Shown here piece after piece: positions 53 to 7,173 of a stretch of 64,000 bases of DNA. Positions within the stretch are counted from its first letter, which is position 1. Every line of letters starts with the position of its first letter. Made by a program: the position numbers and the translations under genes. The stretch lies in the NCBI RefSeq assembly GCF_003019035.1, contig NZ_CP027447.1. One strand, given 5' to 3'. This DNA is from Escherichia coli. GTDB lineage: Bacteria; Pseudomonadota; Gammaproteobacteria; Enterobacterales; Enterobacteriaceae. Under the pieces are notes generated by a model. That model did not search any database, had not been told where the DNA came from, and worked only from the letters and a program-made list of their open reading frames with translations.

Positions 53-1951
53 GTGGTGATTCCTTATCAGTGGGATGCCTTGAACGATCGTATCCCAGAA
101 GCGGAACCCAGCCATGCGATTGAAAACTTTCGCATTGCCGCCGGACTTCAGGAGGGTGAATTTTACGGGATGGTGTTTCAGGACAGCGACGTCGCCAAAT
201 GGCTGGAAGCGGTAGCCTGGTCGCTGTGCCAGAAGCCGGACGCCGAACTGGAAAAAACCGCCGACGAGGTGATTGAACTGATCGCTTCCGCCCAGTGCGA
301 AGATGGCTATCTCAATACTTACTTTACGGTAAAAGCGCCCGAAGAACGCTGGAGCAATCTGGCGGAGTGCCATGAACTTTACTGCGCCGGTCATCTGATT
401 GAAGCCGGAGTCGCCTTCTTCCAGGCCACGGGCAAGCGGCGCTTGCTGGAAGTGGTTTGCCGTCTGACCGATCATATCGACAGCGTATTTGGTCCAGGTG
501 AAAGTAAGTTACACGGTTATCCTGGTCACCCGGAAATTGAACTGGCACTAATGCGCCTGTATGAAGTGACCGAAGAGCCGCGCTACCTGGCGCTGACGAA
601 CTATTTTGTCGAACAGCGTGGTGCGCAACCGCACTATTACGACCAGGAATATGAAAAGCGCGGGCAGACCTCGCACTGGCACACCTACGGCCCGGCGTGG
701 ATGGTGAAAGACAAAGCCTACAGCCAGGCACATTTGCCCATCGCACAGCAGCAAACCGCCATTGGTCACGCGGTACGTTTTGTCTACCTGATGACCGGCG
801 TCGCGCATCTCGCCCGTTTAAGTCACGATGAAAGCAAGCGTCAGGATTGCTTGCGGCTGTGGAACAATATGGCCCAGCGTCAGTTATATATTACCGGCGG
901 CATTGGCTCACAAAGCAGCGGCGAAGCGTTCAGCAGCGATTACGATCTGCCGAATGACACGGTTTACGCCGAAAGTTGTGCTTCCATCGGCCTGATGATG
1001 TTCGCCCGACGAATGCTGGAAATGGAAGGCGACAGTCAATATGCCGATGTGATGGAGCGCGCGCTGTACAACACTGTGCTCGGCGGCATGGCACTGGATG
1101 GCAAACATTTCTTCTATGTGAATCCGCTGGAAGTACATCCAAAATCGCTGAAATTCAACCATATCTACGATCACGTTAAGCCGATCCGCCAGCGTTGGTT
1201 TGGCTGCGCTTGTTGTCCGCCAAATATCGCCCGCGTACTGACCTCGATTGGTCATTATCTCTACACGCCGCGTGAAGATGCGTTGTATATCAACATATAC
1301 GCAGGAAACAGCATGGAAGTGCCGGTAGAAAATGGCACGTTGCGCCTGCGGGTTAGCGGGAACTATCCGTGGCAGGAACAGGTGACAATTGCGGTTGAAT
1401 CGCCCCAGCCGGTGCGTCATACGCTGGCTTTACGTCTGCCGGACTGGTGCACACAGCCGCAGATCATATTGAATGGGGAAGAGGTCGAGCAGGATATTCG
1501 TAAAGGGTATTTGCACATTACCCGCGAATGGCAGGAGGGCGACACGCTGAATCTAACTTTGCCAATGCCAGTACGTCGCGTTTACGGTAACCCGCTGGTG
1601 CGTCACGTCGCCGGAAAAGTGGCGATTCAGCGCGGCCCGCTGGTGTATTGCCTGGAACAGGCCGACAACGGCGAGTCACTGCATAACCTGTGGCTGCCCG
1701 CCGATGCGCCATTTACGACATTTGAAGGCAAGGGATTGTTCCGCCATAAGATCTTAATCCAGGCACCGGGTTACCGGTATGAACAGAGCAATCCAGAGCA
1801 GCAACCGCTGTGGCATTACGACAGTGCGCCAGCCAAACGCCAGCCGCAAACTCTGACGTTTATTCCGTGGTTTAGCTGGGCTAACCAGGGTGAAGGCGAA
1901 ATGCGGATCTGGGTGAATGAGGAAAAGCATTGCCATCCGGAGGTTGGATAA
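53..1951 (+). CDS. Glycoside hydrolase family 127-like (DUF1680, beta-L-arabinofuranosidase-type) protein; true N-terminus may lie upstream of the window
   Basis: 632-aa ORF; frame is open back to position 2 with no in-frame stop, and position 53 is a GTG, so the start is uncertain. Cys-rich segment FGCACCPPNIARV resembles the Cys-containing active-site region of GH127 enzymes. Family assignment is from memory. Confidence 0.65.
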   Translation: MVIPYQWDALNDRIPEAEPSHAIENFRIAAGLQEGEFYGMVFQDSDVAKWLEAVAWSLCQKPDAELEKTADEVIELIASAQCEDGYLNTYFTVKAPEERWSNLAECHELYCAGHLIEAGVAFFQATGKRRLLEVVCRLTDHIDSVFGPGESKLHGYPGHPEIELALMRLYEVTEEPRYLALTNYFVEQRGAQPHYYDQEYEKRGQTSHWHTYGPAWMVKDKAYSQAHLPIAQQQTAIGHAVRFVYLMTGVAHLARLSHDESKRQDCLRLWNNMAQRQLYITGGIGSQSSGEAFSSDYDLPNDTVYAESCASIGLMMFARRMLEMEGDSQYADVMERALYNTVLGGMALDGKHFFYVNPLEVHPKSLKFNHIYDHVKPIRQRWFGCACCPPNIARVLTSIGHYLYTPREDALYINIYAGNSMEVPVENGTLRLRVSGNYPWQEQVTIAVESPQPVRHTLALRLPDWCTQPQIILNGEEVEQDIRKGYLHITREWQEGDTLNLTLPMPVRRVYGNPLVRHVAGKVAIQRGPLVYCLEQADNGESLHNLWLPADAPFTTFEGKGLFRHKILIQAPGYRYEQSNPEQQPLWHYDSAPAKRQPQTLTFIPWFSWANQGEGEMRIWVNEEKHCHPEVG

Positions 1952-2062
1952 GGCGCTCGCGCCGCATCCAACGTAGGGAGCACATTGCCTGATGCGACGC
2001 TTAACGCGTCTTATCAGGCCCACGAGTCGGTGCAGTTGCCCGCTAACCATCGAAACGCGAGA

Positions 2063-2473
2063 TTAAACGCCCGGCAATACACGCCGGGCAGCTTCTGCCA
2101 GAAACGCACTTCTGTTGGCGTAGTCTGGGTTATTGCGCACGTAGGTATCAATCTTGTTCAGTAACCTTTTCGGCATCGTAATATTGATACGTTCAGCCCG
2201 ACCTTCGAACTGATTCATATTGATATCCACCAGCAACCATTGCCCGCCAATAAAGTCCTGCGCACGCTGGACCAGATGTGTTTCCACAGAGCCTGGAAGC
2301 GGCAACTCTTCATCCATCTCGCATAAGGTTTCGAAGTGCGCGACCAGTGCACTTCGCGCATCCTGGAAAGCGTTGTCCAGCGTATCACCAGCAAAATAAC
2401 AGCCTGGAACATCAGGGAAAAAACCGCTGGCGCTGCCGTCAGGATCACTGTGGATATAGGCGGGATAAAACAT
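2063..2473 (-). CDS. hicB: HicB-family antitoxin with C-terminal ribbon-helix-helix-like tail
   Basis: 136-aa ORF 16 bp downstream of hicA on the same strand; strong AGGAGG Shine-Dalgarno 5 nt before the ATG; C-terminal NRSAFLAEAARRVL resembles an RHH DNA-binding motif. Confidence 0.75.
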   Translation of the reverse strand: MFYPAYIHSDPDGSASGFFPDVPGCYFAGDTLDNAFQDARSALVAHFETLCEMDEELPLPGSVETHLVQRAQDFIGGQWLLVDINMNQFEGRAERINITMPKRLLNKIDTYVRNNPDYANRSAFLAEAARRVLPGV

Positions 2474-2489
2474 ATTGCCTCCTGAAATT

Positions 2490-2675
2490 TTAAAATGTTA
2501 AACCAGCCTGACGCCCAATTTGCGCCAGCGTACCGGGCTTAATATCTTTTTTAGGGTGCGGAACCGTCACCAGACCCGGATGAACAGGGTGGCGGAACTG
2601 ATGATGACTGCCACGGGTTCGAATATGTTCCCAGCCATGCTGCTTCAGGATGGCGATCACGTCTGCACTTTTCAC
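2490..2675 (-). CDS. hicA: HicA-family mRNA-interferase toxin
   Basis: 61-aa ORF with GTG start; MKSADVIAILKQHGWEHIRTRGSHHQF matches the HicA pattern (KxxELIKxLEKNGW...GSH with conserved His); toxin-first, antitoxin-second order typical of hicAB. Confidence 0.75.
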   Translation of the reverse strand: MKSADVIAILKQHGWEHIRTRGSHHQFRHPVHPGLVTVPHPKKDIKPGTLAQIGRQAGLTF

Positions 2676-2717
2676 ATCCCTGCCCTTCCATGATTATACA
2701 CACGATACACACAATTA

Positions 2718-2731
2718 GTGATAACAATCAC
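2718..2731. promoter_or_regulatory. Short palindrome GTGAT-AACA-ATCAC upstream of hicA (candidate HicB operator)
   Basis: 5-bp inverted arms about 43-56 nt upstream of the hicA start codon; position fits an autoregulatory operator, but the palindrome is short. Confidence 0.25.
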
Positions 2732-2950
2732 GATAGCGCGATTTATATGGGCCGTCAGGGGGATAAAGTTGACTCAGGAATGCCGCTCGGAAGAAGAATA
2801 ACGGTGTGCAGTAACTTGTTGAAAAGATGCGAGGAGACTCGTAATTAAGTTCAATCAATATTCAGTCATTCAAGACGTAGACATTTGAATTGGTAAAACG
2901 CGTAAGCGTCGCATCAGGCAATGAATACCCAATGCGACCAGCTTCTTATA

Positions 2951-4489
2951 TCAGAACAGCCCCAACGGTTTATCCGAGTAGCTCACCAGCAGGCACTTGG
3001 TTTGCTGGTAATGCTCAAGCATCATCTTATGGGTTTCGCGTCCGATGCCCGACTGTTTGTAGCCGCCAAACGCCGCATGTGCCGGGTAAGCGTGATAACA
3101 GTTGGTCCACACGCGCCCGGCCTGAATGCCGCGCCCCATCTTATAGGCCAGATTACCGTTGCGGCTCCAGACACCCGCGCCCAGGCCATATTGCGTGTCG
3201 TTCGCCAGCTCCAGCGCTTCTTCCATAGTTTTGAAGGTGGTCACCGCCAGCACCGGACCAAAAATTTCTTCCTGGAACACGCGCATATTATTCTGACCAA
3301 ACAGAATCGTCGGTTCGAGGTAGTAGCCGTCTTTCAGTTCGCCTTCCAGCAGCTTGCGCCGCCCGCCGGTGAGCACGTCTGCGCCCTCTTTTTTACCAAT
3401 ATCAATGTAGTTGAGGATGGTTTCCAATTGCCCGTGCGAAACCTGCGCCCCCATTTGCGTCACGCTGTCGAGCGGGTTACCGCTACGAATGCTTTCGACA
3501 CGGCGGATGGCGCGTTCCATAAAGCGTTCGTAGATAGACTCCTGCACTAAAGCACGGCTTGGACAGGTGCAAACTTCGCCCTGGTTAAAGGCAAACAGTG
3601 CAAAGCCTTCCAGCGCTTTATCGAAAAAGGCATCTTCTTCATCCATCACATCAGCAAAGAAGATATTTGGCGACTTGCCGCCCAGTTCCAGGGTTACCGG
3701 AATAATATTTTGCGTGGCGTACTGCATAATTTGTTGGCCCACTTCCGTTGATCCGGTAAACGCCACTTTGGCGATGCGTTTCGAGGTCGCCAGATATTCG
3801 CCAATTTCCCCACCAGCGCCGTTAACCACGTTCACCACGCCCGGCGGCAGTAAATCACCGACGATTTCCATTAGCAGCAGTACAGAAAGCGGGGTAAGAC
3901 GTGCGGGTTTCAGCACCACACAGTTGCCCGCCGCCAGCGCGGGAGCCATTTTCCAGCTCGCCATCAGCAGCGGGAAGTTCCACGGAATAATCTGCCCCAC
4001 CACGCCTAACGGTTCGTGGAAGTGATAAGCCACAGTTTCGCTATCCACTTCACTAATACCGCCTTCCTGTGCCCGGATACACGAGGCGAAATAGCGGAAA
4101 TGGTCAATCGCCAGCGGTACATCAGCAGCACTGGTTTCGCGAATGGGTTTGCCGTTATCCCAGGTTTCAGCCGTCGCTAACAGTTCAAGGTTTTGTTCCA
4201 TTCGATCGGCAATCTTAAACAGAATTGCCGCGCGATCCTGCACCGAGGTATGTGCCCATTTATCTTTCACTTTATGCGCGGCATCCAGCGCCAAATCGAT
4301 GTCTCGTTTGCCCGAAGACGCCACTTCGCACAGCAGCTGCCCGGTCACCGGCGTCAGGTTCTGGTAATACTCGCCGTCGGCAGGGGCTACCCACTCGCCG
4401 CCGATAAAGTTGTCATAACGGGCTTTTAACTTAAGAGGAAAACCATACTCGCCGGGCTTAATCTGTGCTGAAGGGGGATTATTGGTCAT
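2951..4489 (-). CDS. aldB: Aldehyde dehydrogenase B (NADP-dependent)
   Basis: Translation begins [34 protein letters not shown]... (512 aa), recognisable as AldB. The ORF-track start at 4579 is an upstream in-frame extension; ATG at 4489 confirmed in sequence. Confidence 0.93.
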
Positions 4490-4596: not shown

Positions 4597-5892
4597 TTAC
4601 AGCGGATAATGCGCGAAGTACACGGCTTGCTGGTCATTAATTTTCTTCTCTTGCGCAAACCCTTCTTTAACAATTGTCCGTAAATCAGCTCGAGCCGTAT
4701 TATCAGAGACGCCCAGGCTCGCGCTAATTTCAGCAACTGTGTACTCTTTCCCCGGATTGGCGAGCATCACATTCAGGAGCGTTACCTGGCGCGGATTCAG
4801 GCGTTTAAGCACACCAGAGCTAAACAGCACACTATCGAGTTTTGCGCTTCGTTGTGTAATTTCATCGATATGCTGCTGCCAGTTTTGCAGAGCACGTTTA
4901 ATGACACCCGCCTGATATTCAAGGAAATAAGTCAGATCCATACCATCTGATTCAGTGTACTGGTAGCTGGCGGCATATTTGACCGGTGCAGCATGAAGCA
5001 AACGGCTGATGGAAATATATTTAAAGACATCGTAGCCCGATTTCAGCATATACCAGTAAAACAGCGCCCGACTGGTGCGCCCGTTGCCATCCCGAAACGG
5101 ATGTTCATGGGCCAGCATAAAATGCAGAATGCAGGCACGGACCAACGGATGAATATACCCTTCATGGCTGTTTAACCACTGGCAAACTTTTTCCAGCCGT
5201 TCCGGTAACAATGCCGCAGCGGGCGGTTGATGCACTATACTGCCATCATAGTCGGCGATCACAACATCATCTGTTTCACGAAATTCTCCCGGACGATATT
5301 TCGCGTCATTGATTCCACCCATACCAATGGCATGTAACTGGCGAATAAGCGCAGGTGTCAGCGGTTCTGCGAGTAAGTGCGGAATTTCCGCCATCAGCCG
5401 GGCATTTCCCGCAATCATATGCTCGTCTTCAGTGCGTGGCGACCGCCCTGTTTCCAGCATTTTTCTCGCCACCAGCGTTGTAGTATTCGCACCCTCCAGC
5501 TGGGAGCTGGTGATCGGCTCTTCCAGGCGTAACTGGCTTAACTCGGCTCCGGCCCCGCGTAACCGTTCAGTCTGATCTTTCAGCGCCAGCGCGGTAGCAC
5601 GTTTGTCGACAAGCTCGCACGCTTCTGCAATCACCGGGGTAATGTTGAATCCGGCCTGTTCACCCGCTTCATTGCAATAATTAATTCGTTGGATCGCCGC
5701 GTTGCGCGCCAGACGGGTAAGCGTCCACGCCACATCGACGTTTTCTCCTTTTTTGATGCGGTACTGCAACTCATCAAAAGGCAGATAACGTCCTTTTTCA
5801 TCGGTAACCCGGTTAAAGCGCAGGTGGGCCAGGAGTTCCTCACCCGATAAGTGTGATAAAGGAATAAGTCCGGGAGGTGATTTGATAGCCAT
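4597..5892 (-). CDS. Fic/Doc-family protein (putative AMP-transferase) with N-terminal inhibitory-helix motif and C-terminal winged-helix-like domain
   Basis: 431-aa ORF, ATG start. Fic motif [12 protein letters not shown] at residues 264-275 (nt 5068-5103); SSQLEG at residues 129-134 (nt 5491-5508) matches the (S/T)xxxE(G/N) auto-inhibition motif; C-terminal ~70 aa look like a wHTH. Confidence 0.85.
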
Positions 5893-6021: not shown

Positions 6022-7173
6022 TTACATTGCGGCGCGATAAATCGCCACAATTTCTTCGTGAGTTGCCTGGATCGGGTTAGTAAAGCCACAGGCATCTTTC
6101 AGGGCATTAGTCGCCAGTACCGTGAAATCTTCTTCTTTCACGTTCAGATCGCGTAGGCCTGCCGGGATATCCACTTTCTTCGCCAGTTCACGGATGGCGT
6201 TAATGCAGGCTTCAGCCCCTTCCGCGTCATTTTTGCCTGTCACGTTCACGCCCATAGCAGCAGCACAGTCACGCAGACGCGCAGCGGCGACTTTGCTGTT
6301 GAATACCTGAACATGCGGCAGCAGAACAGCATTACATACACCGTGTGGCAGGTTGTAGAAACCGCCCAGCTGGTGCGCCATCGCATGAACATAACCCAGA
6401 GAAGCATTATTGAACGCCATACCGGCGAGGAACTGGGCATAAGCCATTGCTTCACGCGCTTTAGCATTGCTGCCATCTTCAACGGCTAACGGCAGATTTT
6501 CGGCAATCATGGTCACCGCTTTCAGTGCGCAAGCGTCAGTGATCGGCGTGGCGGCAATAGAAACATACGCTTCGATAGCGTGCGTTAAGGCATCCATACC
6601 CGTTGCGGCGGTCAGTGACTTCGGCATACCGATCATCAGAGAGGAGTCATTGACAGAAAGCAACGGAGTTACATGTTTATCAACAATCGCCATTTTGATA
6701 TGACGCGCTTCGTCAGTGATGATGCAGAAACGGGTCATTTCAGAGGCCGTACCCGCCGTGGTATTGATGGCGATCATCGGCAGCTGCGGTTTTGCAGAGC
6801 GGTCAACGCCTTCGTAATCGCGAATATCGCCGCCATTGGCTGCCACCAGCGCAATACCTTTTGCGCAGTCGTGCGGAGAACCACCGCCTAAGGAGATCAC
6901 GCTATCGCAATTATTTTCTTTAAGTAATTTCAAACCTGCGGCGACGTTTTCCGTGGTGGGGTTAGGTTGGGTGCCATCATAAATAACGCTAAAAATATTG
7001 CGTTCTTCCAGTGCTTTTTGCACATCACCCGCCATACCCAATTTCGTTAACATATTGTCGGTGACAATTAAGGTACGGGTAAATCCATAATCTGCCATCA
7101 TATTCATTGCATCATTCAATGAATCAGCACCAATAACATTCACGGAAGGAATAAAAAAGGTTGAAGCTGCCAT
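6022..7173 (-). CDS. yiaY: Iron-containing (group III) alcohol dehydrogenase
   Basis: 383-aa [22 protein letters not shown]... with GGGSPHD and Fe-ADH signature regions; sits between aldB and selB as in E. coli. Confidence 0.9.

Follow-up and report, generated by a model that had tools for sequence, protein, structure and literature searches.

The hicA-hicB toxin-antitoxin (TA) pair that lies to the left of aldB in the Escherichia coli genome studied here (assembly GCF_003019035.1, contig NZ_CP027447.1) raises the question of whether it came to this site recently, together with an accessory block, or whether it is a long-standing resident that most strains of the species no longer carry. The stretch of this contig that we analysed, 64,000 nucleotides in length, is called the window throughout, and all positions without an accession refer to it. 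From the evidence set out below, the pair is very probably an intact chromosomal type II TA operon of Class 4 and an old, vertically inherited neighbour of GH127 and aldB, which has been lost independently in most E. coli.

Organization of the hicA-hicB operon

Both genes are read from the minus strand (Table 1), and the individual elements that were listed in the initial annotation are all seen there, namely a GTG-initiated 61-aa HicA with the motif GSHHQF (G22-S23-H24-H25-Q26-F27), a 136-aa HicB, a gap of 16 nt between the two genes, and an AGGAGG ribosome-binding site (RBS). Such a bicistronic, toxin-first arrangement, with same-strand genes in close linkage across a 16-nt spacer, is that of the Class 4 hicAB systems, and the spacer likewise measures 14–16 nt in most of 16 orthologous loci. 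The GTG start of hicA, for which RefSeq gives identical coordinates, is invariant across 18 orthologous loci. The pair is already annotated in public data, where RefSeq names the two products "type II toxin-antitoxin system HicA family toxin" and "HicB family antitoxin", and it is an ordinary module of a known, structurally characterised class. In fact, E. coli SCU-301 has a 100%-identical stretch whose RefSeq annotation carries identical coordinates for both genes. As a gene pair, it matters little beyond its correct annotation.

Here, we noticed that the GTG of hicA sits in the hexamer ATGTGA (2672–2677, minus strand), in which an out-of-frame ATG runs directly into TGA. This start-stop is kept in 15 of the 18 orthologous loci, and the hicA start of K-12 has one too; translation of the toxin might be damped by it.

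Table 1. Positions of the hicAB genes and of the repeats and candidate regulatory elements around them in the window
Feature	Position	Strand	Description
hicA toxin gene	2490..2675	-	GTG start at 2675; 61 aa; RefSeq WP_000833473.1
hicB antitoxin gene	2063..2473	-	136 aa; N-terminal HicB fold and C-terminal RHH; RefSeq WP_000499742.1
hicB RBS AGGAGG	2478..2483	-	inside the 16-nt intercistronic spacer, 4 nt before the ATG
Terminator-like hairpin	2068..2090	-	9-bp stem with 7 G-C pairs, then TTTAATCT; overlaps the last hicB codons
REP/BIME	1942..2020	+	between GH127 and hicB; Rfam naRNA4, 71.6 bits against a gathering score of 59.5
REP	2903..2923		between the aldB stop and the hicAB promoter region; inverted-repeat pair I1
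P2, proximal promoter candidate	2693..2698	-	perfect -10 TATAAT, 17 nt before the GTG
Tandem GTGTGTAT-n-GTGTGTAT repeat	2696..2712	-	9-nt period; overlaps the P2 -10
P1, distal promoter candidate	2730..2758	-	-35 CTGACG (2758..2753), 17-nt spacer, -10 TATCGT (2735..2730)
Palindrome GTGAT-AACA-ATCAC	2718..2731		present, at chance frequency
CRP-S-like motif TCCGA-GCGGCA-TTCCT	2776..2791	-	speculative; 2 mismatches in the window copy
Second CRP-S-like motif, palindromic TACGA-N6-TCGCA	2828..2843	-	~48 nt further upstream

Family, fold and class of HicA and HicB

In profile searches against Pfam, HicA matched PF07927 (HicA_toxin) with 82.7 bits (E = 1.9e-23; cut-off 27) over profile positions 2–58 of 58, and residues 3–129 of HicB matched PF15919 (HicB_lk_antitox) with 123.6 bits (E = 6.6e-36); a scan of both proteins against NCBIfam matched no family. 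With solved structures as targets, HicA aligned with B. pseudomallei HicA (PDB ID: 4c26/6g26_E) at ~53% identity across 59 of 61 residues (E = 1e-16), and phmmer aligned HicB in full length with both 6g1n (E = 4e-25) and 4p78 (E = 5e-21). Moreover, an AlphaFold2 model of HicB, built with 20 orthologues as input, had a mean pLDDT of 89.5, and Foldseek returned 6g26_A and 4p7d as its best matches (134 columns), with K-12 HicB (6hpb_B) being aligned over 88 N-terminal columns only. The superposition of the model on 6g1c_B gave a target-normalised TM-score of 0.85 with a rmsd of 2.0 Å, from which the N-terminal HicB fold, a partial RNase H-like one, is recognised. The C-terminal ribbon-helix-helix (RHH) part is recognised from the full-length alignment to the RHH-type HicBs (6g1n, 4p78, 6g26_A, and 4p7d); here, the residues R95-I96-N97-I98-T99 are invariant or nearly so and are followed by helices at 102–114 and 121–135.

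With regard to the toxin, Gly22 and His24 are both present under the same numbering as in 4c26, and the conserved positions G14, W15, G22, S23, H24, P39, P41, D44, and G48 are all intact. In B. pseudomallei HicA, the substitutions H24A and G22C each abolish toxicity (PMC3969222).

According to the published classification of hicAB systems, those of Class 4 have a HicB with a C-terminal RHH and those of Class 3, to which K-12 belongs, have a helix-turn-helix (HTH) instead (PMC10865869). Judged by its sequence and its modelled fold, the window pair is an RHH-type Class 4 HicAB, like the systems of B. pseudomallei and Y. pestis, and Pfam, the alignments with solved structures, and AlphaFold and Foldseek agree with the first reading of these genes as a hicA-hicB type II TA operon with an RHH-type HicB. 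A K-12-type assignment (Class 3, Xre-type HTH HicB) is ruled out; the similarity with K-12 HicB ends at residue 66.

Comparison with other HicAB systems

The HicAB system of B. pseudomallei (6g26, 6g1n, and 4c26) is toxin-first too and has the same Gly22/His24 site in HicA, and its HicB, with 35–36% identity over the full length, has in common with window HicB both the N-terminal fold and the C-terminal RHH. The host and the genomic context nonetheless differ from those of the E. coli pair. HicA3-HicB3 of Y. pestis (4p78 and 4p7d) likewise has an RHH-type HicB that aligns in full length (E = 5e-21), whereas its HicA3 is a weak match to window HicA (E = 1e-4) and its two genes are separated by 174 bp (PMC11594946), as against 16 nt in the window pair.

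K-12 HicAB (b4532/b1438; 6hpb) shares the family and the gene order with the window pair. Both hicA genes have GTG starts within ATGTGAAA, with GGCAGGGA before, and their leaders have GGCAGGGA...GATGTGAAA around the GTG in common. In contrast, K-12 HicB ends in an HTH (Class 3) where window HicB has an RHH, and the loci are different ones. As had been stated in the initial annotation, K-12 hicAB lies elsewhere on the chromosome (NC_000913.3 1509286–1509924) and is a different pair, to judge from BLASTP similarities that are weak or partial: 32% identity between the two HicBs over the N-terminal residues 1–66 only, and a marginal similarity between the two HicAs (E = 0.011). The K-12-type hicAB is moreover matched in 5350 of the 5426 genomes (over at least 80% of its length in 4254), compared with ~505 for the window pair.

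Forms of the locus within E. coli

The ~505 genomes in which the window pair is intact make up ~9% of the 5426 complete E. coli genomes, which bears out the supposition that its presence in the species is variable. Here, the interval between sgbE/araD and aldB takes several forms. The form seen in the window, AraC-MFS-GH127-hicBA-aldB, accounts for ~489 genomes, and in 16 others, such as Z0117EC0005, yiaTUVW is found between GH127 and hicB; this GH127-yiaTUVW-hicBA-aldB order is the full ancestral-like arrangement. In ~3,800 genomes, including K-12 and O157, GH127 or a remnant of it is followed by yiaTUVW, a hicB relic, and aldB, and in ST131 JJ1886 the form is GH127-REP-aldB, without hicAB and yiaTUVW. 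No match to yiaW or hicAB was found in ~1,100 of the 5426 genomes.

K-12 has an unannotated relic of hicB between yiaW and aldB. This relic, at NC_000913.3 ~3754726–3754822 (~6727–6823 of locus L004 in our set), corresponds to positions 2038–2146 of the window, with 91 identities over 109 bp when a 12-bp gap is counted, and it consists of the last ~28 hicB codons together with the 3' flank. A 12-bp deletion in K-12 falls within the terminator-like hairpin of the hicB 3' end, and the annotation of NC_000913.3 has nothing at the relic. The same relic is found in O157:H7, E. whittamii, and Escherichia sp. MOD1-EC7003, the latter two having the relic only.

Two REP sequences, at 1983–2003 and 2903–2923, form a perfect 21-nt inverted repeat that brackets hicAB. 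The one at 2903–2923 is kept in K-12, O157, and JJ1886, and the hicAB deletions end beside it. Across distant E. coli backgrounds that retain the pair, the identical HicA (WP_000833473.1) is kept.

Orthologues in other genera and origin of the pair

Orthologues of the pair, with identities of 68–85% for HicB and 54–83% for HicA, are known from at least 10 genera in convergent orientation to GH127-MFS, often in a position just downstream of aldB. The syntenic pair is found in Yokenella, Enterobacter, Lelliottia, Pseudocitrobacter, Trabulsiella, Pluralibacter, Phytobacter, and Citrobacter, as well as in cryptic Escherichia, and the order in Yokenella, yiaY-aldB-hicA-hicB-GH127-MFS, is the one in the window. 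The synteny comparison of the region left of aldB that had been proposed at the outset, once run, gives a pair that is kept at the same site across genera and is variable in E. coli. Pairwise dN/dS values have medians of 0.10 (hicA) and 0.075 (hicB), dS being saturated, and by this sequence-based measure the pair evolves under purifying selection.

A competing view to be weighed at this point is that the pair is a mobile accessory TA module of recent arrival, which would have come in with the accessory block as an addiction element. Such a module might well be present in only the ~9% of complete E. coli genomes mentioned above and be flanked by inverted REPs, and family relatives with less than 58% identity are in fact frequent among plasmids and are found in phages too. 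However, the same position is occupied in at least 10 genera with a divergence comparable to that of the flanking genes, and K-12, O157, E. whittamii, and Escherichia sp. MOD1-EC7003, whose site is empty, still bear hicB relics there. Moreover, mobility genes are missing, none of the 5426 E. coli genomes has a plasmid-borne copy of the pair, and matches to the locus number one or two per genome only. Among plasmids in general, no copy exceeded 58% identity (two matches of 99% were chromosomes filed as plasmids), and among phages none exceeded 43%. Recent arrival as a mobile element is thereby largely refuted, and we give it a very slight chance. The view of the pair as a second, horizontally acquired module, which the initial annotation had favoured, is abandoned for the same reasons, and so is that of an acquired islet, given the multi-genus synteny, the relics at empty sites, and the lack of close plasmid or phage copies. 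Rather, because of the synteny, the relics, the selection, and the lack of mobile copies, the pair is taken to be ancestral at this site and not imported. TA modules that vary between strains need not be recent imports, and this one is ancestral to its locus.

Several relatives have independently lost the toxin, either through a substitution of the catalytic histidine (H24R in L008 and H24P in L017) or a frameshift (L009), or because hicA is missing or truncated (L010, L018, and L032). With the exception of L032, in which hicB is disrupted as well, hicB is usually intact in such toxin-decayed relatives. Since inactivated toxins are carried by several relatives, the toxin, and with it the system, is dispensable and prone to decay. 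On this basis, the pair could also be regarded as a decaying or domesticated remnant, with a HicB that acts mainly as a transcription factor and a HicA that is inactive in the window strain; relatives with a lost toxin or a substituted His24 next to an intact hicB (L008, L009, L010, L017, and L018) are in line with this, as are the GTG start and weak RBS of hicA. Such a state is nevertheless highly improbable for the window, where the conserved HicA residues are all intact, with a hicA dN/dS of ~0.1 across genera and one identical HicA (WP_000833473.1) in distant E. coli backgrounds.

Conserved elements upstream of hicA

Footprinting across genera singles out specific sequences as candidate regulatory sites of an RHH-type HicAB in E. 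coli. The two promoter candidates, P1 and P2, derive solely from this cross-genus conservation; a consensus promoter scan of 1900–3000 gave no match, with neither of them reaching the threshold. P2 was missed by the scan because it is without a recognisable -35, though its region, TGTGTATAAT, is nearly invariant across 18 loci that represent at least 10 genera. P1 scores 8/12 against the consensus, and across loci the T, the A, and the final T of its -10 (TAnnGT) are invariant, with cTGaC being kept at a fixed 17-nt spacing.

Foremost as the most conserved non-coding block (alignments A3 and A4) is the tandem GTGTGTAT repeat. The full unit, GTGTGTAT-n-GTGTGTAT-AAT, spans 2712..2693 and contains the TATAAT of P2 (2698..2693). 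HicB3 of Y. pestis, a tetramer in the crystal, has two operators that flank the promoter, with the main one over the -10, and in B. pseudomallei hicAB the operator overlaps the -10 box, where a CRP-S motif is also predicted (PMC11594946). Because the operators of both these HicBs overlap the -10 box, we regard the tandem GTGTGTAT repeats as the best candidate for the HicB operator, and by this sequence conservation and analogy we would put the chances of it being so at about even.

Alternatively, the operator had been placed by the initial annotation at a short palindrome somewhat further upstream. The sequence GTGATAACAATCAC does occupy 2718–2731, so the palindrome as such is real, yet the window has 1.5 perfect inverted repeats with 5-bp arms (0–10 nt spacers) in every 100 nt, and 59% of shuffles of 2676–2800 hold at least one. 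Moreover, in the 18-locus alignment only the GTGAT arm, which overlaps the -10 and the start region of P1, is conserved; the two closest relatives already have ATCGC in place of the ATCAC arm, and the other genera have unrelated sequences there. With its chance frequency and a right arm that is not conserved, the palindrome is rejected as the HicB operator.

Further from hicA lie two motifs that resemble CRP-S sites, for which the consensus is TGCGA-N6-TCGCA and the E. coli form TGCGA-N6-TTCCA, with class-I-like distances (PMC6728893). The nearer motif, TnCGA-N6-TTCCT, has a TTCC and a CG that are nearly invariant across loci, and its centre precedes the start predicted for P1 by 60.5 nt, a spacing that is identical in 10 of 16 loci; in the window copy (2776..2791), the two mismatches include G5, and as a single-sequence match it is not significant. 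The second motif reads TTGCGA-N6-TCGCAA in other genera. Here, 6 of 16 loci have a site with at most two mismatches at the identical offset, where shuffles would lead one to expect 0.2, although in the window taken alone the motif is not significant (4 matches, 3.6 expected). In the upstream region of K-12 hicA, the palindromic CRP-S pattern had no match with two or fewer mismatches. From conservation and likeness to known sites, CRP-S control of the window hicAB is a tentative possibility to which we give rather less than even chances. If true, the connection of hicAB with the competence regulon would extend to a second class.

The TTGCGA/TCGCAA arms (5–6 bp) were also considered as an RNA hairpin, and this was rejected; it is the sequence that is conserved, not the pairing, with no compensatory changes. 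A search of 1900–3000 against Rfam gave only the REP-derived naRNA4, with no match in the hicA leader.

Proposed mechanism

Under the mechanism that we propose, HicA would be a small RNase of the dsRBD fold with an intact His24 and Gly22 site, and HicB would neutralise it via the N-terminal domain. HicB would also bind the promoter, as a dimer or tetramer, via its RHH domains and in this way autorepress the operon. With a GTG and a weak RBS for hicA, and an AGGAGG and an ATG for hicB, synthesis would probably be biased to the antitoxin despite the toxin-first order. Transcription of both genes could come from P1, possibly in a CRP- and Sxy-dependent manner, while P2, situated under the tandem GTGTGTAT repeats, would be the HicB-repressed promoter, whose ~11-nt leader would favour HicB. 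P2 may nevertheless not give HicB only, since the ~11-nt leader still has an AGGG.

In K-12, an upstream CRP-S/Sxy promoter expresses both genes of hicAB. Two-promoter TA circuits under Sxy and CRP-S are represented by K-12 hicAB and by toxTA of H. influenzae, and in these a second, antitoxin-repressed promoter is located near the toxin start. By analogy, the conserved blocks upstream of the window pair appear to resemble the two-promoter layout of K-12 hicAB. A broader version of this would have RHH-type hicAB follow the two-promoter logic of K-12, Sxy/CRP-S competence control be ancestral in enterobacterial hicAB, and the window pair be a vertically inherited module that K-12 has lost, all of which taken together we consider doubtful. 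If the two-promoter reading is true, the pair would be a housekeeping-like TA module that was lost by K-12.

Possible role and neighbouring genes

Searches of the literature on hicAB with aldB, and on PPECC42, turned up nothing that is specific for this locus. One conceivable role is that of an anti-phage abortive-infection module, in which HicA would be freed on infection and the pair would belong to a small defence neighbourhood; this concerns the role and not the mechanism, and is compatible with an old, vertically inherited operon. A comparative study has proposed an anti-phage role for HicA systems generally (PMC10865869), and a SoFic-like Fic protein (PADLOC, E = 1.3e-43) is encoded 1.9 kb away, beyond aldB. 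Yet no family in PADLOC-DB v2 matched HicA or HicB at E <= 0.01, the context of the pair is metabolic (GH127, MFS, and aldB) and, unlike that of defence islands, stably syntenic, and no phage-related trigger is evident. For the window pair, we thus judge such a role to be improbable.

The protein that matches the PADLOC SoFic model is a Fic-domain protein of 431 aa, with a C-terminal winged-HTH-like region, encoded at 4597–5892 (minus strand) between aldB and yiaY; O157 and ST131 have this gene, but K-12 and Z0117EC0005 do not. On the other side of hicAB, the window lineage has intact genes for an AraC-family regulator and for the GH127 beta-L-arabinofuranosidase-like protein (53–1951, plus strand), of which K-12 has remnants in the form of the pseudogenes ysaC and ysaD; in ST131 JJ1886, GH127 is frameshifted. 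In the Enterobacter and Lelliottia loci L015, L017, L020, L022, and L026, yiaT-yiaU lies between aldB and hicA, whereas in Escherichia it lies between hicB and GH127, and from this difference in position it follows that the surroundings were rearranged around a fixed hicAB-GH127 junction.

A conserved gene for a 108-aa hypothetical protein (WP_129707915.1; L007 9301–9627, plus strand) is convergent with hicB in some lineages and is also found in L009, L019, L025, and L034; Enterobacter sp. kpr-6 and Pseudocitrobacter have it at 51–58% identity, and the window lacks it. In K-12, RefSeq has a 47-aa hypothetical protein just upstream of the hicB relic, and this may be the truncated remnant of a gene of the WP_129707915.1 type.
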